A stretch of DNA of 63,954 nt, the filler included, from Reclinomonas americana ATCC 50394 (Eukaryota), in assembly GCA_048213135.1 (NCBI GenBank). It is 6 parts of 3 records of this genome, joined end to end, with 100 filler letters (N's around TTAATTAATTAA, not from the genome) between each part and the next. Parts side by side here need not be neighbours in the genome. Positions count along the whole stretch, not along the records: positions 16,881 to 26,652 come from PS015119.1; positions 26,753 to 48,163 come from PS015119.1; positions 48,264 to 53,442 come from PS015119.1; positions 53,543 to 61,889 come from PS015119.1; 2 more parts are not named here. One strand, written 5' to 3'. Below, piece by piece: positions 18,200-61,889 of the stretch (the first letter of the stretch is position 1; each line of letters opens with the position of its first letter). Below the pieces are notes generated by a model that made no database searches, was not told the origin of the DNA, and worked only from the letters and a program-made list of their open reading frames with translations. Position numbers and translations under genes: made by a program.

Positions 18200-21100
18200 A
18201 GTTGGACTCTCTCAAGAAGGACCTCATGCCACTGAGCCCCTCCTCCCCCTCATCCTCCTCCTCGTCGTCGTCGTCATCGTCGTCGTCCTCGCCTGCCGAC
18301 TTCATACGCACTGCGGACCACACCACGCTCTCCATCGGTGGGCATGATTTCTGCCACATACGCAACACAGCTGCTTCCTCTGTGCATTGACGCTGCCGCT
18401 GCTGCTGCGCAGGCAACACGCGATTCGAACTGCTGTTTCACCAGTTGCTGAGTGTGCCGCCGGCGGCCGCTGGCGAAACTGCCGCGCTGATGACTGCCTT
18501 TCTGCGCGGTTTGTGCTTCTACGCACCCTGGCTGCATACCGCGGGAGGCTCACTTCTGCTGTCTGCAGAGCACGGAAGTACAGTGATCCAGCTGACTGCC
18601 GATGGTGTGGAGGCACTGGTTCATGCCGTCAGCGTTGCCGTGGAGCAGCACTTTCCACAGGTGACCGGCGATCGCGCACGTGTGTATATGTCGCAGTGTG
18701 TCTCACACACTCTCCGTCGACGTTGTGTAGATGAGCTCCGCAGGATGCATGGCCGATGCGCCGCTGTCGCCGCTGGACGGCTCGCCTCTGCTGTCGCTGC
18801 TCGATCTGGTGCAGGCCGCGTGCTACCAGCCGGCCGAGCATGTGCCCAACAGTAACAAACTCGCGTTGAGTCGTGCCGGCTTGGTGCCGTCGTTGCGCTC
18901 GGTCCTCATGCAGCTCGGCGCTTCCGGCACGGTCGAAGAGCGCTGCTCGGTGTACCGGGCACTCACGAGTGCCACCATGTACGATGGTACGTGTGTGCGT
19001 CGACGGAGGCCACCCTCACGCGGTCGTGTACTCACGATGTTTGCCTTCTTGGACGAGCGCAGAATCGGTCACCGACAACATTGCCGACACGCCGTGCGTG
19101 AAGGTATTGCTTCCCTTTCCTGTCGTCTACGATATCCCTCATGCACCAAGTTAACCAGTGTCCTCACACAGCTCGTGTACGACGATGTTGTGGCTTGGTC
19201 CGACACGGGCGATGTGGCCTCGCTGGCCCTGCCCCTCACCTGCCTCTTTGTCCAGCTTCGCGGAGGTTGATGATGTGCCTTTTTCATTCTCTCTTGTGTG
19301 TTCCCCTCATTTACTTTGTTTGGTGTTGCCGACAGCCAAGTGCGACCGAGTCGCCGTGGGCGAGTGGGGTGCTGCCGAACTGTGTGCGACACTCCTAACC
19401 AAGTTCCACTCGTGTGCGGCCATTGTCACGCTGGCCGCCGGTGTCATGCAGCGCCTGGTGTTGGACCTGCACAACGTGGCTCTCGTGCAGCACGCCAGCG
19501 GTGTGGAGAATCTTCTCAGTGCCTGGCAGACGCATCGACAGGAAGAGGCCGTGGTGAGGCGTGTAACTGCGGCACTGACCAATATTTTCTCGAAGACCAG
19601 TTGCGCACACAGTATCATGTCGCACGCACACTGCAGTCTCACCATCGATGCAGGATCCGTGGCCGAGCCGACACGCACCGAGCTGTGCAATGTGGTCCTT
19701 GGAGTACTGCAGTCGTGCACCGCACAGACATCCTCCGACGTTGTCAACAACGTCTGCTCTCTCATTGGCAATCTGTGCATGGACGGTGCGTGCTTGCTGC
19801 TGGCCGTGGATGCTGTCACCTTTCGCATCTCTGATATGCTTTTTTTACTATTTGCAGGTGACGCATTGTCCATCATGGCTGCCACTGGTGTGGTGCAGGC
19901 AGTGGTGGAAGCCTGTCGACAGCGCATGCACAAGACGAGTGATGTGTTGCGCCTCATCACGACTCTCGGTCACTTGTGCGCCAAAGGTTTCGTCGAGAGC
20001 TCCTCTTTCTTAAACTGGGTGCGATGAGGATGCCGACGTTCATCGCCATCATATTCTCAGAGTCTGTCAAGTTGCTTGCGTACCAGGCCGGCTGTGTGCA
20101 GCTCTTGGCCGACCTGTTGCGTCGTTGCCTGACCGATTGCGACATGTGCCAGCGCGTGGTGTGCGTCCTCGGAAACTTGTCGTATACGAACGGTGCTTGA
20201 CAGTGTCTTGCCTCTGTGTGTGTGAGAGAGAGAGACAAGAAAGATGCAAGCGTCAGCAGTTGTTTGCTCTTCTGTCTCTCTTTCTCTCTTACTCTCGGAA
20301 ACCTGTCGTATACGAACGGTGCTTGACAGTGTCATGCTTATGAGAGAGAGAGGGAGAGAGAGAGATGCAAACGTCAGCATTTGTGTGCTCTTCTGTCTCT
20401 CTTTCTCTCTCACTCTCGGAAACCTGTCGTATACGAACGGTGCTTGCCTCTGTGTGTGTGAGAGAGAGAGACAAGAGAGATGCAAACGTCAGCGCTTGTG
20501 TGCTCTTCTGTCTCTCTTTCTCTCTCACTCTCGGAAACATGTCGTATACGAACGGTGCTTGACAGTGTCTTGCTTATGAGAGAGAGAGACAAGAGAGATG
20601 CAAACGTCAGCACTTGTGTGCTCTTCTGTCTCTCTTTCTCTCTCATTCTTGGAAACCTGTCGTATACGAACGGTGCTTGACAGTGTCTTGCCTCTGTGTG
20701 TGTGAGAGAGAGAGAGAGAGACAAGATATATGCAAGCGTCAGCAGTTGTGTGCTTTTCTGTCTCTCTTTCTCTCATTCTCGGAAACCTGTCGTATACCAA
20801 TGGNNNNNNNNNNNNNNNNNNNNNNNNNNNNNNNNNNNNNNNNNNNNNNNNNNNNNNNNNNNNNNNNNNNNNNNNNNNNNNNNNNNNNNNNNNNNNNNNN
20901 NNNNNNNNNNNNNNNNNNNNNNNNNNNNNNNNNNNNNNNNNNNNNNNNNNNNNNNNNNNNNNNNNNNNNNNNNNNNNNNNNNNNNNNNNNNNNNNNNNNN
21001 NNNNNNNNNNNNNNNNNNNNNNNNNNNNNNNNNNNNNNNNNNNNNNNNNNNNNNNNNNNNNNNNNNNNNNNNNNNNNNNNNNNNNNNNNNNNNNNNNNNN

Positions 21101-23089
21101 NNNNNNNNNNNNNNNNNNNNNNNNNNNNNNNNNNNNNNNNNNNNNNNNNNNNNNNNNNNNNNNNNNNNNNNNNNNNNNNNNNNNNNNNNNNNNNNNNNNN
21201 NNNNNNNNNNNNNNNNNNNNNNNNNNNNNNNNNNNNNNNNNNNNGTAGTAGAGAGAGAGAGAGGAGAGAGAGAGAGAGATGCGTCAGCAATTGTGTGCTC
21301 TTCCGTCTCTCCTTCTCGGAAACTTGTCGTATACGAACAGTGCTTGACAGTGTCTTGCTTATGAGAGAGAGAGATGCGTCAGCATTTGTGTGCTCTTCTG
21401 TCTCTCTCTCTCTCTCATTCCCTCTCCTTCCCTCTCTATCTCGCTGTGTGGGTGTCTCTTGTGACCCTTCACCATGCAGACGAGGTACGACTCGCGATTG
21501 TCACCAGCGGCGCTATGGCCCTCATGGTCGAGGTTCGCAAGCGTACGACAGACTTGTTGAGTGGAAGATTATTGTGCTAAATACACTTGTGTGTCTTCGG
21601 CAGAGTGCCCGCCTGCATGTCGACGACGAGGTGCTGGCGAGCAATACCCTTCGTGCACTCGGCAATCTGGCTCTCGTGGGTCTGTCTTCCTGCCCACTAT
21701 CTCCCTCGAGTGCGTGAGCACCCAACTGACAACGTTTGTGCTTCGCAGAATCACTGGTTCGCGTTTTTGTAGCCCTCGGTGTCGTCACGCTGTGCTGCGA
21801 TCTGCAAGAGCGACACGGAAGCAGCGCACGAGTGTGCGAGTTTTTCGCCCTCATTTGTTGCGTGCTTCGCGCACCCGTTGCTCCATGCCATGCCCGCCTG
21901 TTTCACTCACTGCACGGTTGGTTGCTCGCAGGCACCAATCTGTTTTACACTGGTGTGTTGACCGCCACTGGCGCGACCGTGGTGACGCAGCGACTGACCA
22001 CCATGTGCAGGTCACTACAGTCGAGAGCTGTGCGGAGCACTGGTGGGTCGTCTGTCGTCGGCTCTGGCTCGTCACGAAAATGAGCGATCCATGGTCACCC
22101 GCACGCTGATGAGTCTGGCCAATGTCTGCAACGGAGGGTGCGTCGATGATGACTTCTAAGGCGATCCCGCCAAAAGCTCATCTCTTTAATCGCAGCGACG
22201 GAGTACGCCTGCAAGTGGAGCAAACTGGTGTTTTTGCGTGCATGCAACGACTGGTGGAGTTGCACGCCGGCAGTCATCAGTGCACACGACAGGCGGTGCG
22301 TGATGAAGTGCAGTTGTTGAAATGCATTCGCCCTCACTCCACGAAATATACAACAACGCAGGTCCGCTTCGTGCATGCGTGGGCCAATGATGGTGAGTGA
22401 CGCACAGTACTGTTTGTCGGCAGAGATATACTCACTGAGGTTCATGCAGCTGCCCGTCGCTCTGTCATTGTTCAACGCGGCATCATTCCTCCGCTGCTCA
22501 GCGCCATTCAGCAACACACCGATGAACCGGCTCTGCTGAAGGCAGCACTCACGTTTTTGGTGGCCTTTGCAGACAATGGTTGCGGTGGTGGTTGTTGTGA
22601 ATCAATCAATGTCTGTGTTTCTCATCGCCAGTTCCACCAGAGAGTCGCGCCACGCTGCTGGACGAGCACGGCGCTGTGGATATGTGCCTGTCCGTGGTCG
22701 AGGACACAACAAGAGCCGCCGGTGCATCCGGCCTCACCGTTGCGCCTGCGCTCTTCATGCACACTTTATATGCACAGTTGTCTGACTTGGCTTCGCAGGC
22801 CGAGCAATTGTCGACCCTGGAAAATCGACTGTCGATGGCCGTCAAGTTCCTGCACACGTCGGCCTGCGTCTCTGGTGCGGTCCCCTCTGTCTCACAGTCC
22901 TTGTGCCCTACACTCGCCTCACAATACCGGCAGGTGCCGCCAAATGCCGCATGGTCGACGCCAATGCCGGCGACGTTCTGCACGTGGCCGCCGAGACATG
23001 CACTCGCCCGTGGCCGCACATCGCACAGCAGGCTCACCAACTCGCCGACCTCCTTCACAGGCACCATCACCAGCAGTGAAAAACGATGA
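18200..23089 (+). CDS. Armadillo (ARM)-repeat protein, many exons; start uncertain
   Basis: Spliced ARM-like repeats, e.g. AGCVQLLADLLRRCLTDCDMCQRVVCVLGNLSYTND|EVRLAIVTSGAMALMVE|SARLHVDDEVLASNTLRALGNLAL; stop TGA at 23087-23089. Confidence 0.8.
20168..21420 (+). repeat. Intronic tandem repeat of ~115-130 bp derived from an exon/intron junction
   Basis: Core ctcggaaacctgtcgtatacgaacggtgcttg at ~20168, 20294, 20415, 20530, 20648, 20778 and 21315, with a 441-N gap inside the array. Confidence 0.9.
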
Positions 23090-23395: not shown

Positions 23396-24671
23396 ATGAC
23401 TGATTTGAGTGTCACACAGACAAGCCCACTGTGCGCAGTCGGTGCTGCGTCACTGTCGCGTCTGGAGGGCTCTCTGTCGGTAGCGCCATACACCGGGCGC
23501 TGTTGCGTTCTCTTTCTCACGCACACTCTCTCCCCCTATCTCTCTCTCACTTCCTCACCAGTGGACCAGCGTGTGTTTGGCGACGACACTCTGTGCTGGG
23601 ATTGCCCGAGTGGCGTGCTGACCATGTGCTGGCACGACACCACTGATCACTTGTTGGTGGGCTGTGCGGATGGCAGTGCGCGTGCCTATAGCTTGTCGGC
23701 GGGTGAGGCGACGCAGCCGCAGTCGTTCGACTTGGAAGGCCCGCCGTGCGTCGCCACATTTCGCTGCATCTCCGCCTCCAAAGTGGTGCGTTGGTTTTGG
23801 CAGGAGCCAAGTACGTCGCGACAAGGTGACTGACATTGGTGATACGAACCCCAGGGCGCTGCAGTTCCCGACAAGTGGCCACAGTCGCGGTCGGTGACGC
23901 ACGTAGCCATTCCTCGTTGCGTGCAAATGACAGCGGCCTGCCTGCTTTTTTTCTGTTGCGTGGCTCACTGCGTGGAGTAGGCGACTCGGATACGTTCTCG
24001 GCGGTCGAGAACGAGCGTGTGCATCTGTGGTCGATTGAGAATGCGGAGCGAGCGCTCTCCACGGCCAAGGTGCGTTGCAGGTGTTGTTGTTGCCCGACTG
24101 CGCGGTTGACTGAGCACGCTGCAGGTGAGCAACGAGCCGCTGACATCGCTGTCGTGGAACCCCAACGACAGCCACCTGTTTGCCGTGTCGTCGGTGAGCG
24201 GCCACACCAAGGTTGTCGACACTCGCGACCTCCGCAATCCCGACAACTCTGTCACGTGGAAATGCGGGCACGGCAGCACAAATGGCACGCACGCGGTGTC
24301 GTGGTCGCCACTGATACCGCACTGGATCGCCACGGCGGGCGGTGACGGGTTTGTGCGCGTCTATGACGTGCGAAGCACTTCGGATGCGGTGTTCTCGTTC
24401 CCAGCGCACCAGTCGTTGGCTCTGCATGTTGCGTGGCAGGGAGCCGTGTGGAATTTTCTCGTTGCCTGACGTGTTCGTTGCCGCGCAGGTGGCCTGGTCG
24501 CCGGCCTACTGCGACGTCCTCATCAGCTGCGGAGTGGAAGATGTTGTGCGCGTGTGGAATCTCAATCTGGAGCCGCACTGCGCGTTCTCCAAGGCGGATG
24601 ATCCGCAGATTGTCGACGGTCTGTGCCGTGGGCGTATCGACATGTTTGTTGTTCATCGAGCTCATGTATCA

Positions 24672-24728: not shown

Positions 24729-26470
24729 GTGCTTTGACACGCACCACGCGTGGAATCCCATGTTCCTCACGCAGACGGGCGACGTGCTCAGCTTTCCAGT
24801 GGCCACCGAAGAATTCGATCGAGTCAGCGATCTGATGCTGGAGTTTCGTATCTCACTGTGTGCATTCAAACTCTGTGTTTCTGCCACTGACCGATGCTTG
24901 GCAGGACCTCGGAACTCGGCAAGTCGTACTCGCCATCGCAGCGGCAATTCGTGCAGCTGCTGTACTCGATGCAAGTGCGCAAGGCGTACCGCAAGCTGGA
25001 GGATCTGGTGTTGGAGTGCCAGCAACAGCGCGAGTTGCGTCCTTTTCTGGTTTGCGCGTCTATGTCACCGGGCACTCAATAATCGAGCACTGCAGCTTTG
25101 CCATGGCCATGAAGCTGGTGGACATGGGAGTTCCACTCGACCCGGTGACATGCACGAGCGTTCCCGGCGACGGCAGCGTGGCCACTCCGGCGTTGCCGCC
25201 GTTTCCCACACCGCCACCGGCGGCGCCAGCGGCAACGGATGCTGCTGCTGCGGCAGGGACAGCGCCTTTGCCAGCCGATGGTATGTCGGATGAGCTCCTC
25301 TCTCTCTCTCTCTCTCGCTTCGTCCGAACCATGTCTTGTGTGCCAGCGGCCAGTCGTCCGGTTCACCACAAGGATGCAGTGGCCAGATTCCGTCGCGAGC
25401 TCGACTTGTACTCGCAGCGCCTGCTCAAGACTTTCCCGATCACTCCAGTGCGTTTGAAATACCTTGAACAGCACCTGGGAGAACTCGTGTGTTGACGCAA
25501 CTTGCTCTCTCGCTCTCTCTCCTCGGCAGGATGTGCAAGAGCAACTGCGCAAGGTGCAAGACACGACGGAGAATTTGCGCCTGCTGCGGCTCATCAAGCA
25601 GCGCGACTTTACGGATCCCGCATCCATTGATCGCGAGTATCGCGAGCTTGTGGAGCGCAATCCGCGCTTCCTCGACGTGGACGTGGTGCTGGTGCGTTCG
25701 TGTGTGTATCTGTCTGTGCCCATCTATCATGTGTGCTGACATGCACACGTCTTTCATTATCGTGCAAGACGGTGATTGAGGCCCTGTGCGAAGAGAGCTA
25801 CGACGCTGGCATGGGCGCACTGTCCCGTTGGCTGGAGGTGGTCGAGGATCTGGATCACCGCGACTCATCACAGCGTGTGTGCTCGCCCTTCTTCCAGCAA
25901 GTCGCCGGACCCGCCATCGGTCCACTGCTGTTTGACGCCGCCAACACCGTGTCGTTGCCGGAGGTCAAATGTGAGTGCGCGCACACACGTCACGAGGCAA
26001 CATACCTACCGGCTCGTCGTTCACTCACTTGTCCTCCTCCGCAGACGACAAGGTGACGACGACGGTTCGCGTGCCAAGTTTGGCCTCGAGTGCCGTTTAC
26101 GAGGTGCTGCTGTTGAACGCCGCGTTGCCGGCGTCGGGAACCTCCACTGCCGAGGGCAGTGCCAGCGCGGGGTCGGTGACCACTGTACGCCGCCGGGAGC
26201 GACCGGCTCGGAAAGCAGTTGCGATGCACATTGGCGCTGTTGTGCACAGAAGTCGCGTGTTGTACTCACCCACTCCATTCCGCACAGTCAACGAAACGAC
26301 TGCCGAGGCAGTCGACGGCGCCAACCATTTCCCGCGAACACGTGTCGTCCGTCATGCAATACGGCGGTGGGCCACTCGACGCCAACGGTGTGGTTCGCTT
26401 CATGGAGCGTATTCGGAACCAGTGCGAGACCGACCCGGCGTTCCTGCGCGCCCAGGTCGAGGCCACACGG
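23396..26470 (+). CDS. WD40-repeat protein with a helical C-terminal region; 3' end lost in gap
   Basis: Spliced WD repeats: LTSLSWNPNDSHLFAVSS...KVVD, HAVSWSPLIPHWIATAGGDGFVRVYDVR, AHQSLALH|VAWSPAYCDVLISCGVEDVVRVWNL. Confidence 0.8.
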
Positions 26471-26652: not shown

Positions 26653-26696
26653 NNNNNNNNNNNNNNNNNNNNNNNNNNNNNNNNNNNNNNNNNNNN

Positions 26697-26708
26697 TTAA
26701 TTAATTAA
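26697..26708. other. Artificial scaffold linker
   Basis: N44-TTAATTAATTAA-N44. Confidence 0.95.
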
Positions 26709-26757
26709 NNNNNNNNNNNNNNNNNNNNNNNNNNNNNNNNNNNNNNNNNNNNTGTAG

Positions 26758-27772: not shown

Positions 27773-30716
27773 ATGTCTTCCAAGCGCGTCATGGTGTCTC
27801 AAGAAAAGGTGCTCTCTCTCTCTCTCTTTCTCTCTCGTTCTNNNNNNNNNNNNNNNNNNNNNNNNNNNNNNNNNNNNNNNNNNNNNNNNNNNNNNNNNNN
27901 NNNNNNNNNNNNNNNNNNNNNNNNNNNNNNNNNNNNNNNNNNNNNNNNNNNNNNNNNNNNNNNNNNNNNNNNNNNNNNNNNNNNNNNNNNNNNNNNNNNN
28001 NNNNNNNNNNNNNNNNNNNNNNNNNNNNNNNNNNNNNNNNNNNNNNNNNNNNNNNNNNNNNNNNNNNNNNNNNNNNNNNNNNNNNNNNNNNNNNNNNNNN
28101 NNNNNNNNNNNNNNNNNNNNNNNNNNNNNNNNNNNNNNNNNNNNNNNNNNNNNNNNNNNNNNNNNNNNNNNNNNNNNNNNNNNNNNNNNNNNNNNNNNNN
28201 NNNNNNNNNNNNNNNNNNNNNNNNNNNNNNNNNNNNNNNNNNNNNNNNNNNNNNNNNNNNNNNNNNNNNNNNNNNNNNNNNNNNNNNNNNNNNNNNNNNN
28301 NNNNNNNNNNNNNNNNNNNNNNNNNNNNNNNNNNNNNNNNNNNNNNNNNNNNNNNNNNNNNNNNNNNNNNNNNNNNNNNNNNNNNNNNNNNNNNNNNNNN
28401 NNNNNNNNNNNNNNNNNNNNNNNNNNNNNNNNNNNNNNNNNNNNNNNNNNNNNNNNNNNNNNNNNNNNNNNNNNNNNNNNNNNNNNNNNNNNNNNNNNNN
28501 NNNNNNNNNNNNNNNNNNNNNNNNNNNNNNNNNNNNNNNNNNNNNNNNNNNNNNNNNNNNNNNNNNNNNNNNNNNNNNNNNNNNNNNNNNNNNNNNNNNN
28601 NNNNNNNNNNNNNNNNNNNNNNNNNNNNNNNNNNNNNNNNNNNNNNNNNNNNNNNNNNNNNNNNNNNNNNNNNNNNNNNNNNNNNNNNNNNNNNNNNNNN
28701 NNNNNNNNNNNNNNNNNNNNNNNNNNNNNNNNNNNNNNNNNNNNNNNNNNNNNNNNAGTCACAATGTGCAGTCGACTCACTCACACGCTGTGAAGGCACG
28801 AGCTGCTCTGCTGGCACACCACCCCTTTGCTCTGTGTGGTGCCGACCTCGCCGACTCTGCACACACTCTGTGCGCGGTGATTGACCGCCCAGAGAGTGCC
28901 TCTCGCATCACCAGTGAAGAGGAGCTTGTCGACGCCGTGGTCTCGGCCGGAAGCATGGTCGGTCAAAGTCACGACCCCAATTGAAGCTGCATGTCGTTCC
29001 GATCGTTCGACTGACCGTGTGTAATATTATCGAACATGTGTGTGTCTAGCAACTGCGCGATGCGCTGTCGGTGGTGGATGTGCAGCAGCTGGCGAGCAAG
29101 ATGGGCGTCAAGGTGCCGCCGGTGGTGACCAACCCGCGCGCTCATCAGCGAGTGGTGAAACAGGTGTGTACGGAAGCGGTGTCTTGTTCGGATTTGAGAA
29201 CGAGAGAAACTGACTCTTGTTTTGTTGGTGCAGCTCATGCAGCGGTGGACGGAAGAGGTGGAGGTCGACGACGAGGAGCAGGGTGGCGGGTCGAAGCGCC
29301 GACGCGCCAAGAGCTCCTTCAATGTGTTTGTCAGCGACCAGATGCTGGCCATGGCGAATCCGCAACCGGACGATGTGGAGAATGTGAAGTGCGTGGAGTT
29401 GCCTGTGTGTTATCCATGGTGTTGCTGCTCCTCAATCAGGTGATCTTCTACGTGCAGTGCGTCCGCCCTCAACATGAGGGACAGGATGAAGGAGATCGGT
29501 TTGTATGCATGCATGATGCGTTGTGTGCAGTCAACAGCTGTCCCGTGCTAACTTTTCTGCCAGCGCGTCGCTGGCGCACCGTGACGCTGGAGGAGCGTGC
29601 CGAGTATCGAGATCGAGCAGCGCGTGAGCGTCAACAGCCTTCCTCGTTCTCTTCCTCCAAAAAGGCAAAGAGCGAACCGGAGGCACCAGCCGTAAGCACC
29701 ACCGCGGCTGCTGCGACTGCAGCGGAATCCGCTCCAGCTTTCACTCCCAAGAAACCCAAGACCGCCTACGCCTGTTACACCAGTGCCGAGCGCAGCCGGT
29801 GAGCACCCTACCGACTATTGGCTCGGCATACTTCCTTCCTGCCTCTCTCACTGCATGCTGCACCAGTGTCGTCGCCGAGAATCCACAATTTGTCGGTCAG
29901 CCCAAGGAGATTACTCGTCTCCTATGTTGCGTCGCAACTTGAAGACCACGGTCACCCTTCCCACACAAACTCACCTTCCCCGCTCGCAGCCGAAAAGTGG
30001 GCGACAGCCACTGCCGAAGTGAAGGCCACGTACGAGGCCATGGCCACGGCCGACCGTGAGCGGTACCAACGAGAGCTGACCACGGGAGAAGTTGAAGGTC
30101 TGGCACCCATTGTTGACATCGTGACATTTTCACGCCGCTCACATCGAGAACAGCACCGCGGGGCGGCAAGGCACCGTCAGGAGGGAAACGCGCACCCAAG
30201 AAAGCAGCCGACAATGGCGACAGTGGTGCTGCGCCGGCCGCGGTCGAAGAGGACGGACGCAAGGCACGCTCGGCGTTTGCCATTTTCTCCGCCGCCAAGC
30301 GCATGGAGTTGCGTTGCATCCCAGCACCCACCCCAACAGTGATACACGCCGTTACTGACGAAACTCACAGGAATCCCAACATTCGCCTGACGGAGATTTG
30401 TTGCGTTCCCTCCACCGTCTTCCACCCCCCAGTCTCTCCTCCCCACTGACCATCGCACACAGCGGCACTCTGGCGCGACACATCCGAGGCCAATCGCGCT
30501 CCCTTCCAGGAGGTGGCGGAACGCGAGAAGGCAGCACTGCAGGCCTCCAGTGTGCCGCTGACTGCTCTCAGTGCCACACCCGCGCCACCTCTGCCAACAA
30601 TCGGCGCCGACATGCTGGCGAATCTGCCGCCGCTGCTGTCGACCGACATGGCATCGCTGCCGCCGCTGCTGGCGACCGACATGGCGTTGCTGCCACCTCT
30701 GCCCCTGCTGCCGTGA
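27773..30716 (+). CDS. Protein with three HMG boxes
   Basis: Spliced boxes RRAKSSFNVFV...KEIARRWRTVTLEERAEY; PKKPKTAYACY...EITRLLSEKW...KATYEAMATADRERY; KARSAFAIF...ENPNIRLTEISALWRDTSEANRAPFQEVAEREK. Linkage of the ATG exon at 27773 across the gap is assumed. Confidence 0.8.
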
Positions 30717-30792
30717 TGCAAGAACACAAGCACACCCACACACATTCACGTCTATTTCGTCTCCGTATTCTCTCTACGTGTCTCTGTTGCGA

Positions 30793-34992
<4,200 letters not shown>

Positions 34993-40471: not shown

Positions 40472-41290
40472 CGCCTGAACATAGCACGCCGCTAAGAGTT
40501 AACTCATCGGAGGAGACAACTCCACACACACAAACCTGCGGCGGCTTGCTCGGATCCGTCAGTTCCTCAGTAGACGCCACACCAATGCCCATCATGCGCT
40601 GCTTGACCACGGCACCGACCACGTACGACAAGGCCGCAAACGACACACACGTGATCAGAACACGATTCGGCAGCGCCTCCGCTCCCTGTCGTGCACCACC
40701 GACTCTCGCCTGCGCCGCTACATCCATTGCCACTCCCAGCCGCAACATCTCCTCCTCTTCCACGCGACTCCGATGCAGGAACGTGAGGAAGGACACGAAA
40801 GCAAAGGCCAACACCGAGGTGACGATCCACGAGCTGCTTGCATGCAACAACGATGAAATGAGGACCGCAGCAGTGACGGGAAGCGATCAGTGCACGCAAC
40901 AGAAAGCGTGCCAGCAGTCGCTTGAACATGCTGGGTGGACGGATCTTGATCTTGGTCGGTGGCACCGGTGGAGGCGGAGGCAGCGCCACATAGGTGACTG
41001 CCACTGGCGGTGGCATCACGCCGGGTGTGGGCAGTGCAACGGGAGGCGGTGCACTGACACCCACACCCACAGAGGCCGCCACTGAAGCAGCAGCAGCGTC
41101 GACACCACTGCAGGCGAAAGTGTGAGAGTGAGGAGAGTGTGACCGAACACACACACACACACACGAAACGATGATGGCGACGGTGGTGGCGACGGGGGAG
41201 AGGGAGGCACTGCGGCTGCGGTGCTATTGTTGCGCGCGGGGAGGAGCAGCAGGGAACGCACAGTGGTGGTCTGTGGCGCAGGGTGGTTAC
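40472..41290 (-). CDS. Partial Pro-rich membrane protein of unknown function
   Basis: Exons ...PPVPPTKIKIRPPSMFKRLLARFL|SSWIVTSVLAFAFVSFLTFL...VLITCVSFAALSYVVGAVVK with two hydrophobic helices. Confidence 0.5.
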
Positions 41291-48345: not shown

Positions 48346-48931
48346 CATATCAACGAGATCTTCTCCCATGGAGCTCTTGAGCTCAATCTCCTTCCAAAAG
48401 TCCTTCTCAAAGCTCAGCTTCTTCAGCTCCTTCTTCTCCTCCTCCAAGAACGCCACATCCTTGTCAATCTCCTCCTCCAAGTGCCTAAACAAACACACAC
48501 ACCCACACAAGTCAGTCTCTGTGTGTGAGAAAGAGTGAGAGTGAGAGAGCGCAACTTGGTGTACTGTCCCAGTGTCTTCAGTGCAGAGTCGGCCAAGGCC
48601 TGTCGCGCACGATCGCCCTTTTGTTGGCTCATCATCAGGTCCTGTGTGTGCGTGAGAGAGAGTGTGAGTGTGTGCAAGTCATGACTGTTTTTAGTTGCCT
48701 TCTTGTTGCACTTATCACCTGCTCAAGTAGCGTTGTCAACCGGTAGAACTCTTCTCGTGTGAAGCGCTTGAGCTCACGCGCGCGAGTGGCCAACAAACCG
48801 AGCTGTGAGTGACTGACTGTGTGAGTGACTGTGACACTCATTGTTCGTTCTGTGTGTGCGTGTGTGCTCACCTGCTGCTCCATGTCAGCAAACTCCTCAG
48901 GTGAGAAGATGCTCTCAAAGCCTTGCGCCAT
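48346..48931 (-). CDS. N-terminal exons of an unknown coiled-coil protein, truncated by gap
   Basis: MAQGFESIFSPEEFADMEQ|LGLLATRARELKRFTREEFYRLTTLLEQ|DLMMSQQ...YTK|HLEEEIDKDVAFLEEEKKELKK, with GT-AG introns in frame. Confidence 0.7.
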
Positions 48932-49035: not shown

Positions 49036-52000
49036 TTAGTCGCGGAAGAAGATGCGTGCGCTGAGGAAGGAGAAGAACAGCAGCTCGAACTCTCTTCGGT
49101 ATGACATGATGCGGTTGACCGTCAGTTGCAAATGCTGCGTCTCGTCGTCCTGACGTTTCCGACCGGCCAGCTCCCGTCGTACTTTCTCTGTTGGCGGTGT
49201 GTGTGTGTGTGTTAGTCAACTTGCCCTCCTCTCGCGTATACCCGCTGCCTTTCCGAACCTTGTTCCTCGCTGTAGTGCATCTGCACGGACTCGAACCATC
49301 GCAGGCCGTCGAACTGCTTGTTCTGGTCCAGCAGCTTGAGCACAAAGGCCAGACCGAGTGCGAAGCCGTCGTCGCAAAAGTTGCTCTCCTTGTTCTTCTT
49401 CGTCAGCTTGTCCTTGCTGGCCAGCATGTGGTCCACGTAGGAGAGCGTCAGCGGTGGTACGATAATGTAAAAGTTGCGCAAATGGAAGTTCTGCTCCTTG
49501 CGCATCTCGTCCTTGAAGACCTCCACCAGGATCTTGAAGTAGTCGGAGCCCTCGGCGAACTTTTGCATCAGGTTGTTCAGCACCGAATCCACGTTACTGT
49601 GCGTGCGTGATGGGGCGGTCAGAAACCTCCCTCTTCATCCTTCACAGCCCTTGGAGAAAATAAATTGCACTCACCGAGCGGCAGTCACCGACTCCTCTGA
49701 CAGGCTGGAGGCCACCGCCTGCTCCTCATAGTTGGGCGTCTTCTCCAGATCTGTGTGCCCAAAAAAAAACGTGAGAGACATAACCCCCCCCCNNNNNNNN
49801 NNNNNNNNNNNNNNNNNNNNNNNNNNNNNNNNNNNNNNNNNNNNNNNNNNNNNNNNNNNNNNNNNNNNNNNNNNNNNNNNNNNNNNNNNNNNNNNNNNNN
49901 NNNNNNNNNNNNNNNNNNNNNNNNNNNNNNNNNNNNNNNNNNNNNNNNNNNNNNNNNNNNNNNNNNNNNNNNNNNNNNNNNNNNNNNNNNNNNNNNNNNN
50001 NNNNNNNNNNNNNNNNNNNNNNNNNNNNNNNNNNNNNNNNNNNNNNNNNNNNNNNNNNNNNNNNNNNNNNNNNNNNNNNNNNNNNNNNNGGCGTTGGTGC
50101 CCAGCTTGCGAATGTCCTTGTTGAACTTCTCCGTGCGTTTCAGCGGCCACATGTTTTGCAACGACTCGCGTTGTTCGCGGAAGAAGCGAATGTCGGTGAT
50201 CAGTCGCGACTTGATGTAGTCGTCGTACAGGAACTGGGAGAAGATGAAGAACTTGCGCGACAGGAACTGGTACACGAGGTTGACCTACACAGGCGCGTGA
50301 GTGACGGGAGTCGCATGAGCACGTGTGCGTGTGTGGCGCAAACGCAACTGTGGTGTTCATGATACCGGTGCCGTGTGTGCGAATCGAGTTGGAAATGTGA
50401 CGAATGTTGATGGTGTTGAGGTGCTTTGAATCGGTGGCGGCGCATCGCTCCACAAACACCTGATTGTAAATGTCGTAGCTGTAGCGCGACACGAACAGGT
50501 GAATGTTGCGCGTGATTTCCAGCACGTCTAGGCCCTGTGACGGAGGGGTGCGAGTGAGTGCACAGTGGATACGAACAGCACGGCAAGCGCGACCGCACGC
50601 AACTTGCTCCAGTGTGGCGCCCGGCAAGTAGACCTCGGGCAACTCGAGACCGTACTTTTCACGCGCCAGATTCCTCATCTCGCCGTACGTCTTCCAATCG
50701 TGCAGCGCAATCGCCGTCAAATTGTAGAACGTCTGATTCAGGTAGTGACTCACGCTCCCTGCAAAAAGGCCAGGATGAGAACCACAGACCTTCTCATACG
50801 CATAAAATTCATATTTCGAGAACGCACCCTTGATGTCGATGAGATCGCCAAAGATGCGCACGGGTCGCAGCTTGAAGAACGATGCCGGGTCGCGCACCGT
50901 GCTCGCAATCTGCTGTCCCCGCTGGCCGAGCACCACCGTGTGGATGTGCAGACGCAAGTCGTTTTCTACATCGCGGCACAGGGGCTGGATGACGTGCTCG
51001 CGCAGCGTATCCTCCAGCTCCTTCTTGTAGAGCACCACCAGATCCTCCGGCTTTTCCAAGTGCTGCTGCTGCCGCAGCGTGCGCTCGCAGTCTTGGAAGG
51101 CCACCATCATGTACTGTGGCGGAAGGTGAGCGTAAGCATCAACGCCGGGAAAACCAGGCAGTCAACAAAGACACACACACCGGCAGACGGAAAGCAGCCA
51201 GCGGTGAGTCATACACGTGTCGCATGTACACAGGAATGAGCTCGCGATGGCCATACAAAAACGTGCAGTCGCATGCCTGGCGGACGCGGCGCCACATCTG
51301 TCCCACCATCTCCCACAGTCGGAGATGCGACTGCAGCTCCTCCGCCTCCACCTCGCGCACCACCGAGCCCGACATGCACACCACCGCTGCGGCCGTACGC
51401 GCAACCGCCAGACGCTCCTCCGTGGGAGGTCCACGCAGCGCTTTGATCATCAGCGACACGGCCGACAGCTGATCAATCTGGTGTGGTGGCACGCGACGGT
51501 TGGCGGCCTCCAAGCGAGCCTTGCCGTGCACCAAAATGTGCTGCATGCGGTGTGAGACATCCTCGGCCACCACCGGCAGCAGCTCGCCGTACACAGCACT
51601 CTTGCGGTAAAACATTTGCTCAATGGCCTGTAACGAACGCAAGAATGGGGTTAGCGAGGGAGGCGAGAGAATTTGCAAAGTCATGACAGACAGCACCTTC
51701 AACATTTCCACCAGGCGGCACAAGCCGAGCACCTGCTGCGCCGACATCTTGCGCTGAAGATCCACATGCAGGTATAGGCAGTGCTTGAGGAAGCCCGCAA
51801 TGCGGTTTGCCAGGAAAATGCCCTATAAATATCCAGTCAGCATGCACCCTACTCACATGCATGGAGCAGACAACACGCAACATTCAACAGCGTGCGACCC
51901 TCCTGTGCGGCGCGCGTGTGATTGTCGGCACTCGGCAACCAACTGGTCTCCGACTGCACCGACCACGCATCCAGCTCCAGTGCAAACTGCTGCACTCGTC

Positions 52001-53356
52001 TGTGTCGCCGGAATCGTGTCAGTCGTGTGCGCTGTATTCAGGAAAAGACAAGCAAACGCAACGAGTCAAACGTCGTATCGCAGAGCTTGACACTCTCCGC
52101 ACGACCCTCGGCCAGATGCCGATCAATGTCCTTGACGCCGAGGACCGGAACCAGGCCGGGCGCGTTCTGCACCAAGAACTCGGCGGGGAACCACGCCGTG
52201 TTGCCGTACAGATGGAGAATGGGCAGGTGCTGAGCGACAGGATGTGAACATCCAACCTGCACACGGCCAGCACTCTCTCTGCAGGGTGCGCGCTTACCTT
52301 GCGCTGAATGTCCCACACAGTGCGGAAGAACTTCTTGTCGGTCACGTCGCGGAAGACGGTAAAGTAGAACACCACCAGAGAGCACAGGCCCACGTATTCC
52401 TCGCGCACGTTGTTCTCGTTCGGCGCCCCCACTCGAGTGCTCATGAACGCCAGAATGTTGCGCATGGACTCCATGAACTGGTTGCGGAAGGTCTCGTTGG
52501 CACGCACATTGGCCGTGCCCGGCAGATTGTACTCGCGCTCTGTTGTGGCCAGCTAATCGTTCCACCAGCAGCAGCAGCGGCGTGTGAGCAACACACAACA
52601 CACAAATGCATCGCACCAATGCAACACACCTGGAACAGCAGGCCATCCAGCAACTGGCCCTCCATGTGCTGCAGCACGCGATCGAATTTCCTCACATCCT
52701 CCAGGCTCACGCCAAAGCGGGTCGAGTCGGCGCGCACCGTGCGCAACATGCGCTTGTACACGCCAATGCAGCTGCGGAAGTTCTCGTTCTTCGCAATCAG
52801 CGTGTCCATCGTCACGAGGATGCTCAGCAGCTGGCCCAGGTTGACAATCGCGTACTGTAGCATCACACACCACACACAAAGGCACTCAGCACGACGAGCC
52901 AACCNNNNNNNNNNNNNNNNNNNNNNNNNNNNNNGACACAAACAAAGAGCGTGACTGCATCCAAACACAGCAAAGTGTGCGGAATAACAATCACGCGGAG
53001 GTGCGAGGGTGTCATTGCATTCCGATCCGCAATTGACTTTGCTCTCTCTTTCTCTCTCTCTCACTCACTCTCTCACATGCACAGACACACACCTCGTGTG
53101 AAGTTCGTGTCGAGTGCGTCGGCCAGCTTGTTGGCTTGTGCCGTGAATTCTTCCACAAATGTGGTCAGTCGGTCTAGTTGAATATCCTGCGGCAACTCTG
53201 CACATACACAACACACAAACAGACGCACACACACAGAGAGAGAGAAGAGTGAGCGTGAGCGGGTGTGAGTGAGTGTGCGCGACAATTTCCGCCCACACAA
53301 CTTTCCGGGTCGCCACTGAATGCATCAAAAGTGTAGGCATCATCATCGTCATCCAT
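49036..53356 (-). CDS. WASHC4: WASH complex subunit 4 (SWIP/KIAA1033)
   Basis: [101 protein letters not shown]. Confidence 0.95.
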
Positions 53357-53486
53357 GCGACTGGCGGTGGCCGACGGCGCAGCCGACGAGGACGACGCCA
53401 TGAGAAACAATCAAAGTCACACCTCACTCGGACAGTTCCCTCNNNNNNNNNNNNNNNNNNNNNNNNNNNNNNNNNNNNNNNNNNNN

Positions 53487-53498
53487 TTAATTAATTAA
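53487..53498. other. Artificial scaffold linker
   Basis: N44-TTAATTAATTAA-N44. Confidence 0.95.
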
Positions 53499-53542
53499 NN
53501 NNNNNNNNNNNNNNNNNNNNNNNNNNNNNNNNNNNNNNNNNN

Positions 53543-54208: not shown

Positions 54209-55771
54209 ATGTTTGGTGACGCAGAAGTCTCGTCGACCTTGGGATGGATATCCGTCTTTTCATCCGTGGTCTTCTTCGGCTCCTTTGCAGTGCCATCGAA
54301 GATCAAGTCCATGCGAGTTGCGCATCTCTCACTGTCACTCACTTCACTCCATGTGTGTTGCTCACTCGTTGGTGTGTTTGCAGGAGGCGAATGTCGACCC
54401 GTTCATCACGGCCATGTATCAGAACTTGGCGGCGTTCTTGACCAGTTGGTTGGTGCTGACGTATGTCAAGTTTGAGTGGACCAACTGGGGTGCGTGTGTC
54501 TCCCACACTAGTGTGAGTTGCATGCATGCATTGACTTCGTGTGTCAAGGATTGGCTGGTGCAGCGCTGTGGACGCCTGCTGGTGTGCTGGCACTGGCGTC
54601 GGTGCGGCTCATTGGTCTCAGTGTGGCGCAGGGCTTGTGGTGCGTGCGCATGTGTGTTTCTTGTCACGAATGACTGCCTCTCAAGTTCGCCGTGCAGGAG
54701 CGGCATTACGAGTTCTGCGTTTGCCTGTGAGCTTCTCTGGTGTTGTTGTTGACGGGTTTCGTTGCGCAGTTGTGGTGTCGTTCCTGTGGGGCGCGCTGTT
54801 TTTCCGCGATCCGATCAAGAACTTGGCGGGAGCGCTGGGCGGTCTGGCGCTGCTGCTCATTGGCATTGCGGGTATTGCGCTGTGCAAGCCCGAGACGGAG
54901 GAGAGCACGGAGGGTGAGTTGTGTGAGGGAGACGCGCTGGCTTGTTTCGTGCTGTGTTGATGCGTGTCGCAGGCAAGTCGGTCAATGGTGACGGTGCGCG
55001 ATTAGCAGCACGGTGCGTCCTCGCTTCCCTTGGTACGTCTGCGGTTCCATGTCACACTGAACCGTGCAACAGTGATCCGGCGGAGAATCAGGGGCTGCTG
55101 GGACCAGGTGCCGCGGACGACGATGAGTTGCGTACCCCCGCACGCCCACTGCTGGCCGTCAACGACTTGGAGAAGAAGAAGCCGGTGTCGAAGCGCATGC
55201 TCGGCTTTGTGTTTGTCATTATTCTGGGGTGAGCGGCATTCTTGCGTGCGACCCTGCTGTCGATTGTTGCTCACCACGTGCCGTGTGCAGAGTCATGAAT
55301 GGCTCCATGATGGTGCCGGCGCGCTACGATACCAACGTTGCGATCCTCATTCTCTCACTTCCCCACTTCTTCCCGTCTCCCTCCTCACTCCCTCCACAGA
55401 AATCAATATCCTACGTGTGCAGCTTCGCCGTGGGCGTGCTCGCCATGTCGGTGCTGCTGTCACTCGGCTACTACGGCCTGTACAAGCGCGGATTGCCAGA
55501 CAAGAACCATCTGAAAGTCGCCGCGCTGCCTTCGATGCTCACCGGCCTGTTGTGGAACATCGGCAACGTCTTCAGCATCTACGCCTCCATGTCGCCTCTC
55601 GGACTGACCATTGGCTTCCCGCTCACCCAGACCGCGCTGCTGGTCAGCGGCCTGTGGGGCCTGTTCCTGTTCCGCGAGTTGCGAGGTGCGAGGAAGATCA
55701 CACAGTTTTTCCTCTCCGGTGCTATCTTGTGCGCCGGTGCCGTGCTGCTCGGACTCTACGGACACGAGTGA
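54209..55771 (+). CDS. TMEM144: TMEM144-family (DMT-superfamily) transporter
   Basis: SSVVFFGSFAVPSK, GLSVAQGLWSG, VSFLWG, GLLWNIGNVFSIYA...GFPLTQTALLVSGLWG..FRE, assembled across short introns; stop TGA at 55769-55771. Confidence 0.85.
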
Positions 55772-55842
55772 CGAGCACGCCGCAGTAATGTATCACTAAA
55801 CAGTAGTTATTCTTAATTATTTTTAGTGGCGGTGGTGGTGGA

Positions 55843-58800
55843 CTATCTGTCCCGTCGACTCTGCCGACGAGTTGCGGAATGGGCCGATTGTGGACGCGAT
55901 CGCACTGCGGGGCTCACCAGTCCGGAGCTCGAGACGCTGTTGGTGGCAGTGGTGGCCTTACTGGCTGGTGACGATGGCGCAGGCCGCCGGCGGGTTGGAC
56001 TCACCGACGGCGAGATGGTCCAGTGTGGTCGAAATGCACTCAGCGTGCGCAGCAATCCACGAGACAGCCGATTGCCTGCATTTCCCACGCACCGCAAGAG
56101 TGTGAGGAAAGCAGAAGAGTGCGCTTCGCGCAGTGTGCACTACCACCCCCTCACCGCGATTGATGTCGACGAGATCGGTCTGCCGATTGAAGCGCAGTGC
56201 ATCTGTGGAGACGAGAGAAACATAAGTGGTGCTCAAGTATCCGACAACAGAAACAGGTACTGACCGGTGAGGAACCGCTGGCACTTGTCGCTGAATCCAT
56301 TGTCGCCGACATTGACTGCCCGAAGACTGCACGTTGGACCGGAGTTCACTTCGAGTGCAGCGCAGAGGCCGCGGATGGCACGGTACACGCAGTTGTTGCC
56401 TGCATTGTGTGTGATCAGTGACAAGCGACAGTGTGCATGGCAGTGGTGGTGACAACGACGGAACGACTAATGTCGAGTGTCTGCAACACGGTATTGCTGC
56501 GCAGACCCACTTGCAGTGCATCTTCGGCGTCGTCTGTCAAACCCGTGTCTTCGCATCATGTGAAGGGGGAAGAGCGTAAGCATGGAAAAAAAGATGATCA
56601 GTATGCTCGTGGCTTGCGATCGCAACTCGACAAGCCGAGGTGGAGCAAAGTGCTGGATCGGGGTTTTGATGATGAGAGGGTGCGAAATAATGCCATAGGA
56701 GACGACAATCACAAACGCACCTGTTGACACACAGCGCATACAGGAGCTGAAAGGCGTGTGTGCCCATCTCAGGGTTGTCTGCAAAATGAATGATGCACGT
56801 GAGGAACATGCGATATTCAAGAGGTACAGCTCAGCACGCAGGCCTCGGCCAGACCTTCGAGAACAAGAGATTGCAGCGAGCGGTTGCTACGAAGCAGTTC
56901 GGCCAGCAAGTGACCCGAATGGTGCGCCAGTCGATTATCTGCACTCCGCGAGTGAGCGAGACGAAAAGCACAGTTGCTGCTCCCACCAAGGGCATTCACG
57001 CAACGTGCCAAGTCCAGTTCCCGCAGTGTGGTGTTGTGCTGCAAGCCGTTGCACAGTTCGAGGACTCCGCGATCTTGCACAATGTTGCCACGGAGTGACA
57101 ATCGTCGCAGCGATCGATTCACACGCAGCGCTGTGCCCAGTCGTGCCACTGATGGGTCCACCAACGCAGTCCCTGCATGCGTGGAGAGGCAGTGAGAACG
57201 CGGCTACATGAGGGCGCACAGTGCTGCTGAGCAAAAAAAACGCAACAGTCGAGCACGAGAGCGGCAAGGGCACACTGAGCAGTGCCCAGATGCCGGCACA
57301 ACAGGGTAAAGCCAGCCACTCCCGGCGGTGATCGCGACAGATCGAGCAGTTGCAGTGCAGGTACAGCACAGACTCCACGCAAGAAGGCCTCCGTCTCCTT
57401 CTCAATGTTGCACTCTGCATTTCACCAATCAGACTCAGAACATTCTGTGCTTCAACGAGGAGGAGGAGACGCACGTTGCACACAGAGGCGCACAATGCCA
57501 CCGGCGTTCCCCAACAGCCCTTCGCCGAGGGCGCGCACATCGGCAGCCGTCAGTCGCATCTCTGTGTGATTGCAACATGAGGAATTGCTCACGATCAGTC
57601 GTAATGCAGCAGATCCAGCGGGCCGCAACTGATGAGTTCCAACTCGCGAAGCGTCGGAATGGCTCGAATCATGTCGCTCATGACGGGAATGCCGTATGGT
57701 CCGAGGTCGGTCTCTGCACGGCAGTGTGAATTGATGCATCGACATGAAGAGAATGCGAGTGAAGAACTGCGACGTACCACGCAGACGGATGGCCGCAATG
57801 TTGTGAAACGCATGTGAGAACTCGATAAACCTCTTGCCCGGGAAGAACGGCGGCGCCGACTCCCACACCTCGTTGTCAATGACAACCGTCGCATGTCTGC
57901 CGCGTAGCGAGTCAGGTTGCGCTGCCATAGAAGATCAGGAATGGCGACTCACTCACTCGTACCTGACAAGCAATCGGGAGAACCACGTGGACACCCGCCT
58001 GTGCCAGCGCCATTACATGAACAGAGCGATGAGAGATGAAGCTCGTGCGAGGTACAAAGTAACCACAAACCACAAGTATTGAACATCGTCGGCCGACAAG
58101 CACGACAGCACCAGCGCCCATAGTTCCTTGGTCAGTGTCGGCTGTGTGCGCAGGTCAGCATCGACAGTCACACAATCCAACACAACGGCGATGCGTACCC
58201 GTTCTGGCTCCGATGACATCAAGTCCACACTCTGCATGAGTCCGAGAATGGAGTGAGGTTAACAGAACTCCACACTATCACCACACAATGTGTACACGAG
58301 TCGCACCTGCTCACTGTCGTACTCCGACATGGACGAGGACGATGCCGAATACTGCAAAGAGGAAGACTGTGAGGCCATAGGCGACTACCAGCAGCGCAGC
58401 AATGGGAAACAGCACTCAACAATGGAAGATACACGGAGACCAGTGTCGGCACTGCGCATTCTGGTTGGACTGTCGCCCATCATAAGGTCGGTCATGAACT
58501 GCACGAGACTCGTCGTCAGTCACTTGCCCTCCATCACACAGACAACACAACCCATGCATGCTCACCGCTCGCGGCACCTCTGCCCCACCCGCAATGGAGG
58601 AACTACGCGAACGCATCGAACCCATGACTCGCAAGCCGAGAATCGAGTTGCTGCGCCCGCGCGACAAGGGCGACCCTTCCGGTGACACGGAGCTGCGAGT
58701 GCTGTCGTCGTCTGCCGTGGAGATTTTGGCAGGTGGTGGAGACCGCCGCGGCTCCTCCACGCCAGGTACATGGACGCGCCCCATGACCACGAATGCCGAC

Positions 58801-61301: not shown

Positions 61302-61889
61302 TTGTTTCCGCTCATTGAGCAAATCAAACAACTTGCCGCCGTAAATCTCAAAGAACGACACCCATACTTGCAGCTCGGGGTAGTCGACCAACCGCTCGTA
61401 AATGTCCTGGGCGGCCAGCAGGTACAATCCCACTACATCGTCCTTGCCCAGCATGGTGTACGTCTTGCCGGAGCCGGTCTGGCCGTACGCAAAGCACGTG
61501 GCCTTGCCGCGGTTGAAGACCACGTCAATCAGCGGCTGTGCTGTTCGCATGTACACCTGCGCACAGAATTTCGCGTCAGCAGCTGGAACGGAAGCAGTCT
61601 TGACTGGCACGACTGCACACCTCCTCGTTCGGGCAGTCCTCGTCAAACACCTCGTCAAACTGGAACTCGTGCGTCTCCACGTAGCGAGTCAGATCGACCT
61701 TGATCCTGCATGGTCCCGCATGTGAGCATTGAGGCCATCCCTCCTCTCTCTTTTTCTCTCTCTTCCGTGCGCAACTTGGGCTCGTGCACAATCAAATGCG
61801 ACTGATCCATCACACCCAGCACGTCGGCATCGGCACGGCCAGTCTCCTTGCGGTTCAGCGGACGCTTTCGCACCGCCACGCAAATCTTT
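61302..61889 (-). CDS. Kinesin-13 motor domain, N-terminal half
   Basis: [25 protein letters not shown] (KVD finger), [41 protein letters not shown]. Confidence 0.92.

Follow-up and report, generated by a model that had tools for sequence, protein, structure and literature searches.

Can a spliceosome routinely read introns whose starts carry the usual consensus one base too far downstream? Few features of intron starts are as constant as the G at +5 and the purine at +3, and sites read out of register are seen as rare oddities of human genes. The question is raised by a 63,954-nucleotide stretch of DNA from Reclinomonas americana ATCC 50394 (six parts of assembly GCA_048213135.1 joined end to end, hereafter the window), for which an earlier note listed 34 introns beginning GTTGCG and proposed that they are read routinely in a displaced register or by a variant U1/U6 snRNA or spliceosomal protein. 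Our results support the view that GTTGCG donors form a major, statistically separate class. The introns that carry them are, to judge from their sequences, almost certainly genuine major-type (GT..AG) spliceosomal introns, and the use of this start rather than an ordinary one appears to be set by the last base of the preceding exon.

Junctions were placed by homology with our own protein-to-genome spliced aligner, which admits any GT..AG intron of 35-1500 nt at a flat penalty and uses no donor matrix. In the gene for WASH complex subunit 4/7 (WASHC4), a homologue of 1134 aa (query P0001, 55% identical to one exon) placed 12 introns, and those beginning GTTGCG start at 52062, 51881, 50603 and 50348, exactly the four that had been listed. 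The joined protein equals the homologue residue for residue at 50603 (TLEQ/GLDV) and at 50348 (NTT/VNL), and at 51881 LLN/GIFLANR aligns with LLR/GYLLAYR. In NSUN5, the best of four queries (P0062, score 745) placed 10 introns and returned the claimed donors 33571, 33391, 32563 and 31673, together with an unlisted one at 31811. The three more distant queries were discordant in places: of the five GTTGCG donors, P0061 retains 4 and P0064 retains 3, and P0067 retains 1 of the 3 that lie within its range; P0061 and P0064 skip an 18-nt exon and thereby lose 33391, P0064 and P0067 shift 31811 by a few nucleotides, and P0067 puts 32546 in place of 32563. We preferred the P0062 junctions because P0062 is much the closest query. 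Overall, 9 of the 22 introns placed by homology begin GTTGCG (eight claimed donors and one new), against 1.69 expected (p 2e-5), and two more begin GTTGTG. A WD40-repeat exon (24125-24427) used as a homologue query had no match. A Nup192/205-like exon had five, the best of which (P0151, 35% identity) is unsuitable for placing junctions because it is too divergent; its alignment reused the donors 42935 and 41885, but with implausible acceptors.

The remaining introns come from a self-trained Viterbi gene finder with three-periodic Markov coding scores. Its first pass knew no splice rules other than GT and AG; the second also used a length prior and a score for branch and acceptor, neither of which depends on the donor; the third added a donor matrix, which is unable to create correlation between positions because it treats them as independent. 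GTTGCG was the commonest donor hexamer in the first pass (13 of 92) and still in the second, with GT as the sole donor rule (25 of 194). The third pass gave 32 of 171 and reproduced exactly 18 of the 22 homology introns. The motif-free gene model misplaced several GTTGCG junctions by a few bases, and the plus-strand models of an HMG-box gene and a TMEM144-like transporter gene had lost to wrong antisense extensions at strand resolution. The resulting census holds 141 introns, the 22 placed by homology and 119 from the gene finder in strand-clear zones. It omits the repeat-rich region below 17,400 with its poor models, the antisense extensions spanning 29046-30949 and 55088-55900, and the NSUN5 and WASHC4 models that the gene finder itself had made. 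Pfam continuity over junctions was informative for the HMG, TMEM144 and kinesin exons only, and weak for exons shorter than 40 aa.

Most of the introns listed in the earlier note stood. All 34 coordinates read GTTGCG on the strand given, and 32 of the introns are supported: 25 in strand-resolved gene-finder models, five in plus-strand models (29926, 30308 and 30400 in the HMG-box gene, 54317 and 55337 in the TMEM144-like gene) and two by homology only (32563 and 33571 in NSUN5). The other two fared less well. The donor at 46702 is ambiguous: the gene finder prefers a 78-nt intron from another GTTGCG 30 nt upstream, at 46732, with the acceptor in common, and the intron that 46702 would define has 48 nt, below every verified intron length. 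The one at 37949 is unverified; the stretch that follows it is convincingly intron-like (CTCAC, CAG), the gene finder takes a different path, and the frame closes solely via two possible flanking micro-exons on the plus strand, of 24 nt (37925-37948) and 16 nt (38047-38062). We thus confirm the observation that GTTGCG introns are abundant. Their presence in nearly every gene was also borne out, with a GTTGCG donor in 10 of the 11 tallied genes that have at least two introns (the tally also covers an SF-assemblin model with one intron and a stretch with 3 introns at the window end, with GTTGCG in neither), and inside the same genes they are mixed with ordinary GTGCGT, GTGAGT and GTGTGT donors. 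Short exons were seen elsewhere in these genes: a P0062-supported micro-exon of 18 nt in NSUN5 (33392-33409, minus strand) and one of 29 nt in the HMG-box gene (30371-30399, plus strand), the latter between two GTTGCG introns.

The hexamer itself is in excess. There are 97 copies on the two strands, against a mean of 54.99 (sd 7.41) in 100 dinucleotide-preserving shuffles, none of which reached 97. In our models 38 copies are donors, 18 are sense-exonic, 4 lie inside sense introns, 19 are antisense and 18 fall outside gene zones; within genes the ratio of sense to antisense copies is 60:19 (p 4e-6), indicating a strand-specific signal. No depletion of GTTGCG from sense exons was seen in the window (18 copies, with a mean of 13.3 over 60 hexamer permutations).

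Among the introns of the window, GTTGCG is the commonest donor of the census, with 38 of 141 where 4.52 would be expected if positions +3..+6 were independent (binomial p 2e-24), which agrees with the earlier claim of a major separate class. Its share is 27% of the 141 census introns and 41% of the 22 homology introns. The class is narrow: against these 38 donors the census has 3 GTTGTG and one each of GTTGAG, GTTGGG and GTTGCA. It is also tied to the exon. The base before GTTGCG is A in 15 cases, T in 17, C in 4 and G in 2, and this frequency of G (2 of 38) contrasts with 45 of 72 before ordinary GTG/GTA donors (Fisher p 1e-9). Counted from the exon side, GTTG[CT]G follows 10 of 11 exon ends other than G and 1 of 11 exon ends in G in the homology set (p 3e-4), and 39 of 80 and 2 of 61, respectively, in the census. 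At the other end of the word, +7 is T or C in 33 of 38 GTTGCG donors, and ordinary donors, of which GTGCGT is the commonest (16 of 72), have T at +6 in 47 of 72. These patterns suggest two forms of 5' splice site: an ordinary one with an exon-final G and a loose start (GTGCGT, GTGAGT, GTGTGT, GTAAGC and others), and a second one, W/GTTGCGY, with a rigid start after a last exon base that is A or T and almost never G. The two homology-placed GTTGTG introns (53198-53301 and 31928-31986, both on the minus strand) follow exons ending in A; GTTG[CT]G may describe the second class better than GTTGCG alone.

Beyond the donor, the two kinds of introns are alike. Median lengths are 64 nt for GTTGCG and 68 nt for ordinary GTG/GTA introns (p 0.70). 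The word CTNAY, mostly CTCAC or CTGAC, occurs in 34 of 38 GTTGCG and 43 of 72 ordinary introns, at a median distance of 16 and 17 nt from the 3' end, and C stands at acceptor -3 in 33 of 38 and 58 of 72. The difference between the forms thus seems confined to recognition of the 5' end, with length, branch-like motif and CAG acceptor held in common. The features of U2-type GT-AG introns are present: GT and AG ends that restore the frame (9 by homology, 29 by gene models) and, in 34 of 38, a CTNAY-like candidate branch motif 10-40 nt from the 3' splice site. U12-type introns, which have the 5' word RTATCCTT and the branch word TCCTTAAC, likewise form a second class in which the 5' word is rigid and the exon side lacks a consensus. 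We rejected this identity, since the introns have GTTGCG starts and CTCAC/CTGAC tails instead and their 3' half is the same as that of ordinary introns.

How might such donors be recognised? The canonical U1 end is ACUUACCU, with ACUUAC. The string GTTGCGT at +1..+7 differs by one base from the ordinary GGTGCGT at -1..+6; the ordinary consensus is moved by one base, and G+1 replaces G-1. To this extent the displaced-register reading of the earlier note holds, but the corresponding pairing to the canonical U1 is rarely predicted. Using unmodified RNA parameters and an assumed U1, RNAduplex gave a mean of -0.65 kcal/mol for the 38 GTTGCG donors with the canonical U1 5' end and -5.42 for GTG/GTA donors. 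In the shifted register, the base opposite U1 position 5 is C in 39 and A in 3 of the 50 GTTG donors. Since pairing between the invariant C at +5 and the canonical U1 base is impossible, an altered U1 end or help from a protein would be expected. Among 256 variants scanned at U1 positions 4-7, ACGCAC was best for ordinary donors (-8.75 kcal/mol) and near best for GTTGCG (-6.79); for ACGUAC the values were -7.08 and -4.8. With either of these hypothetical U1 ends, shifted pairing would be more stable than canonical pairing in this model. Co-evolved U1 ends have precedents in the passages of bioRxiv 10.1101/2022.06.08.495308 that bear on them: ACAAAC with GUUUGUU in Entamoeba and ACGUAC with GUACGU in Mastigamoeba.

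We regard a displaced register on a possibly altered U1 as the best explanation, and judge its chances of being right and of being wrong to be evenly balanced. The snRNA that reads the 5' splice site would need a G opposite its position 9, a C that normally faces exon base -1. Where the exon can end in G, the ordinary register would be used; where it has no final G, intron G+1 would fill the place opposite C9, U+2 would be mismatched against C8, TGCGY would be read one base further in, and cleavage would remain at the sole GU. The U1 5' end would be altered at positions 5-6 (ACGUAC or ACGCAC, not ACUUAC), or a protein would help. More tentatively, and with some doubt on our part, one may envisage two parallel 5' splice-site codes in the major spliceosome, with the last exon base deciding between them and W/GUUGCGY read by a changed snRNA 5' end. 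This end could belong to one U1 with G/C at positions 5-6 that works in two registers, or to a second U1-like RNA complementary to GUUGCG.

Several observations weigh against the displaced register. RNAduplex chooses the shifted pairing (G+1 on C9) with the canonical U1 in 3 of 38 donors. Displaced pairing would set base -1 against U10, so that A should be preferred and G tolerated; in fact T and A are about equally frequent there (17 and 15 of 38) and G is avoided. Thecamonas and the Mamiellales (GYGCGY), whose donors have C at +4, keep a standard U1 according to passages of bioRxiv 10.1101/2022.06.08.495308, so an altered U1 is not required by the ordinary GTGCGT donors. The census depends in large part (119 of 141 introns) on our own gene finder, which missed 4 of the 22 homology introns. 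Finally, 18 sense-exonic copies of GTTGCG are predicted to stay unspliced, 3 of them in homology-verified exons, where the copies mostly correspond to Leu-Arg codons; because of these 18 copies, GTTGCG alone would be insufficient for splicing. An A or T at -1 was considered as a switch between spliced and unspliced copies and rejected, as A or T also precedes 11 of the 18 exonic copies that stay unspliced.

A different arrangement would give the spliceosome two U1 species. A second U1-like snRNA (…RCGCAAC…) would pair Watson-Crick with GUUGCGY in the normal register, and the major spliceosome would handle GTTGCG introns as a client set of their own, in the way that U12-type introns form one for U11. 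This would suit the rigidity of the hexamer, the absence of an exon consensus before it and the almost nil pairing with the canonical U1, and in the scan of 256 variants those that pair best with the GTTGCG class alone are AGCAGC and AGCAAC (-7.1 and -7.0 kcal/mol). Physarum offers a parallel, with standard and modified U1 candidates (passages of bioRxiv 10.1101/2022.06.08.495308). However, one RNA working in two registers would account more simply for the one-base relation to GGTGCGT and for the exclusion of G at -1, and the window has no predicted snRNA gene: none of the Rfam families passes its gathering threshold there, and at E<=1 the window gives weak microsatellite-type miRNA/sRNA matches and no U1. 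We therefore consider two U1 species unlikely.

Recognition could also proceed without U1 pairing, through a protein (U1C, a LUC7-type zinc finger or another RNA-binding protein) or through U6 or U5, which would make these extreme 'right-handed' sites. We know of no protein with GTTGCG specificity. The predicted pairing to U1, close to zero, is what this would entail, and Kenny et al. (2025, PMC11842720) describe exon-sided and intron-sided classes, left- and right-handed, that go with different LUC7 paralogues. The likeness lies in two classes told apart by the side of the consensus, GTTGCG being entirely intron-sided; in contrast, the LUC7 classes described there are two ends of one consensus in one register, whereas here the intron-sided class has a word of its own, displaced by one base. 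A fixed six-base word with a strict link to -1 resembles base pairing more than it does a protein preference, and we find U1-independent recognition rather improbable. The equal use of A and T at -1 is explained neither by the displaced register nor by the two U1 species or the U1-independent route.

The age of the introns bears on a further possibility. A metagenome scan with a WASHC4 exon returned 17 loci from other eukaryotes, none of them a close relative, which we used to compare intron positions. Three of the four WASHC4 GTTGCG introns share position and phase with ordinary-donor introns in these loci. At 51881, locus L017 has cag/GTGAGA; at 50603, L006 has caa/GTGAGT and L010-L016 have cag/GTAAGC or cag/GTAACC; at 50348, L010, L011, L013, L015 and L016 have act/GTAATT and L017 has aca/GTAATA. 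Old introns therefore appear to have had their starts rewritten in place. No GTTGCG-rich locus was found among them, with 0-1 copies in the four of the 17 loci that were counted. The L017 contig (3527 nt, 44% G+C) carries a WASHC4 gene with 12 introns of 50-63 nt, at least 5 of which lie at positions of the window's WASHC4 introns, all with GTA/GTG donors. A rigid common terminus and a uniform short length might evoke a recently inserted, introner-like family of mobile introns with GTTGCG as its conserved end. We hold this to be very improbable: the WASHC4 positions are shared with distant eukaryotes, in the same phase, which argues against mobile introns and against lineage-specific insertion; any 8-mer is shared by 80 of 666 pairs of GTTGCG introns (all low-complexity) and by 157 of 2145 ordinary pairs; and the reverse complement of the hexamer occurs inside 1 of 37 introns. 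On this last count (CGCAAC in 1 of 37), pairing of GTTGCG with an intron-internal complement was also rejected. Scarcely credible, lastly, is an artefact in which gene modelling makes chance frame-restoring cuts in GC-rich DNA with many open frames: our gene finder does over-predict introns, and the models leave the 18 sense-exonic copies unspliced, but nine junctions are exact by homology, none of the 100 shuffles reaches the observed count, the strand ratio is 60:19, and GTTGCG leads the donors even with GT as the sole donor rule.

Displaced registers are rare elsewhere, as the earlier note had stated. In the passages of Tan et al. (2016, PMC4856993) that give counts, noncanonical registers together make up 1.5-2.1% of 201,541 human 5' splice sites, compared with 27% and 41% for this single form in our two sets. 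The nearest human counterparts are the +1 shifted-register sites (Roca and Krainer 2009, re-measured in the same passages of Tan et al.). They share the U at +3, the consensus displaced by one base, the G+1 opposite U1 C9 and the cut at GU; unlike GUUGCGY, they are of the GUUAAGU type, with A in place of C (here GTTGAG occurs once and GTTGCG 38 times), and the GTTGCG form is not predicted to be held by the canonical U1. Another human register has a bulge at +2/+3 (Roca et al. 2012; 54-68 human sites in the passages of Tan et al. 2016, PMC4856993). Adding a U to GUGCG gives GUUGCG, but such a bulge leaves the exclusion of G at -1 and the rigid C at +5 unexplained, and RNAduplex put G+1 on C8 in 2 of 38 donors, one of them with downstream pairs.

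Among other eukaryotes, Entamoeba and Mastigamoeba also have a lineage-wide atypical donor, with U at +3 in the former and C at +4 in the latter. As far as the available passages go, however, theirs is one near-universal donor form, and Entamoeba is intron-poor, whereas here two forms occur side by side in intron-rich genes and are sorted by the last exon base. The GYGCGY donors of Mamiellales and the +4 C donors of Thecamonas resemble instead the ordinary class of the window (GTGCGT, with a CTGAC/CTCAC branch-like motif), and a GTTGCG class is unreported in the passages of bioRxiv 10.1101/2022.06.08.495308 that deal with them. A full-text literature search, with figures and supplements outside its reach, found no paper naming GTTGCG or GUUGCG as a splice signal. 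Rare shifted or bulged human registers, single atypical protist donors with or without a co-evolved U1, and exon-sided and intron-sided classes are thus already known; what appears to be new is that an intron-rich genome has a displaced form as one of its main classes, selected by the last base of the exon.

The window is DNA of an intron-rich eukaryote. Its G+C content is about 56% of called bases, and it has 24 N runs, with the joining filler between parts included; the paired 44-N runs around 12 bases at 16781-16880, 26653-26752, 48164-48263, 53443-53542 and 61890-61989 are the positions of this filler. Tracts of (CA)n and (GA)n are frequent, and their hexamers are about 15-21 times over-represented across the whole window. 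Pfam searches on open frames identified WD40-repeat, SF-assemblin, HMG-box, NSUN5 and Nup192/205-like genes, and further WASHC4, a TMEM144-like transporter, a leucine-rich repeat (LRR) protein and a kinesin. A long low-complexity purine-rich block, (GAG/GAA/GGA)n, occupies 3746-4800. A repeat of about 1.1 kb is present in two inverted copies (8593-9679 and 15583-17091), with pieces that are 86-99% complementary, and beside one copy an open reading frame (9579-10472) has a weak zf-RVT Pfam match; the inverted repeat may be a retroelement remnant, and gene models there are unreliable. A predicted exon with glutamine runs (QQQQ...) at 39702-40175 on the plus strand terminates at an assembly gap.

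Table 1. Introns beginning GTTGCG in the window, with the support for each and whether the earlier note had listed it. Passes are those of the gene finder; P and L numbers are protein queries and metagenome loci.
Gene	Length (nt)	Position	Strand	Support and remarks	Earlier note
	54	19600..19653	+	Pass 3	Listed
WD40-repeat	75	21857..21931	+	Passes 2, 3	Listed
WD40-repeat	62	22579..22640	+	Passes 2, 3; G at -1 (one of two)	Listed
WD40-repeat	60	22739..22798	+	Pass 3	Unlisted
WD40-repeat	60	23502..23561	+	Passes 2, 3	Listed
WD40-repeat	61	24428..24488	+	Passes 1-3	Listed
WD40-repeat	62	25034..25095	+	Passes 1-3	Listed
WD40-repeat	70	26218..26287	+	Passes 2, 3	Listed
HMG-box, second HMG box	64	29926..29989	+	Plus-strand model; next exon from HMG_box profile position 37	Listed
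HMG-box	63	30308..30370	+	Plus-strand model	Listed
HMG-box	63	30400..30462	+	Plus-strand model; after 29-nt exon; next exon from HMG_box position 38	Listed
NSUN5	576	31098..31673	-	Spliced alignment of P0061, P0062, P0064, P0067	Listed
NSUN5	63	31749..31811	-	P0062, P0061; P0064 and P0067 a few nt away; G at -1	Unlisted
NSUN5	62	32502..32563	-	P0061, P0062, P0064; P0067 and gene finder chose 32546-32497	Listed
NSUN5	64	33328..33391	-	P0062 and pass 3; after 18-nt exon	Listed
NSUN5	63	33509..33571	-	P0061, P0062, P0064	Listed
Coiled-coil	61	37676..37736	+	Passes 1-3	Listed
	~98	37949..38046	+	Unverified; not picked by gene finder	Listed
Nup192/205-like	67	40834..40900	-	Passes 2, 3	Listed
Nup192/205-like	58	41828..41885	-	Pass 3	Listed
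Nup192/205-like	72	42661..42732	-	Passes 2, 3	Listed
Nup192/205-like	62	42874..42935	-	Passes 1-3	Listed
Nup192/205-like	64	45064..45127	-	Pass 3	Listed
Nup192/205-like	79	45301..45379	-	Passes 2, 3	Unlisted
	78	46655..46732	-	Passes 2, 3; contains listed donor 46702	Unlisted
	75	47013..47087	-	Passes 1-3	Listed
	71	47265..47335	-	Pass 3	Listed
	71	48485..48555	-	Passes 1-3	Listed
WASHC4	64	50285..50348	-	P0001; position common to L010, L011, L013, L015, L016, L017	Listed
WASHC4	69	50535..50603	-	P0001; position common to L006, L010-L016	Listed
WASHC4	59	51823..51881	-	P0001; position common to L017	Listed
WASHC4	63	52000..52062	-	P0001	Listed
TMEM144-like	67	54317..54383	+	Plus-strand model	Listed
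TMEM144-like	63	55337..55399	+	Plus-strand model; next exon matches TMEM144 profile 216-320	Listed
LRR	78	56549..56626	-	Passes 2, 3; AAG acceptor, weaker	Unlisted
LRR	66	56939..57004	-	Passes 2, 3	Unlisted
LRR	74	57173..57246	-	Passes 2, 3	Listed
LRR	68	57562..57629	-	Passes 2, 3	Listed
Kinesin motor	70	61706..61775	-	Passes 1-3; joined reading HEP-K-IKVDLT	Listed

In this genome, then, donors with U, C and G at +3, +5 and +6, respectively, account for roughly a quarter to two fifths of the introns in our sets and are tied to the last base of the exon. If this pattern is borne out in RNA, the choice of the cleavage site and the register of snRNA pairing would be separable as a normal, selected state, and a changed or duplicated U1 would be predicted. 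Gene finders built on a single donor matrix would then mis-model a large share of the genes of this organism and its relatives. If, in addition, two parallel codes are at work, this would be the first case in which splice sites are routinely recognised in a shifted register across a genome, and it would offer a natural system for learning how U1 pairing and the cleavage site uncouple.

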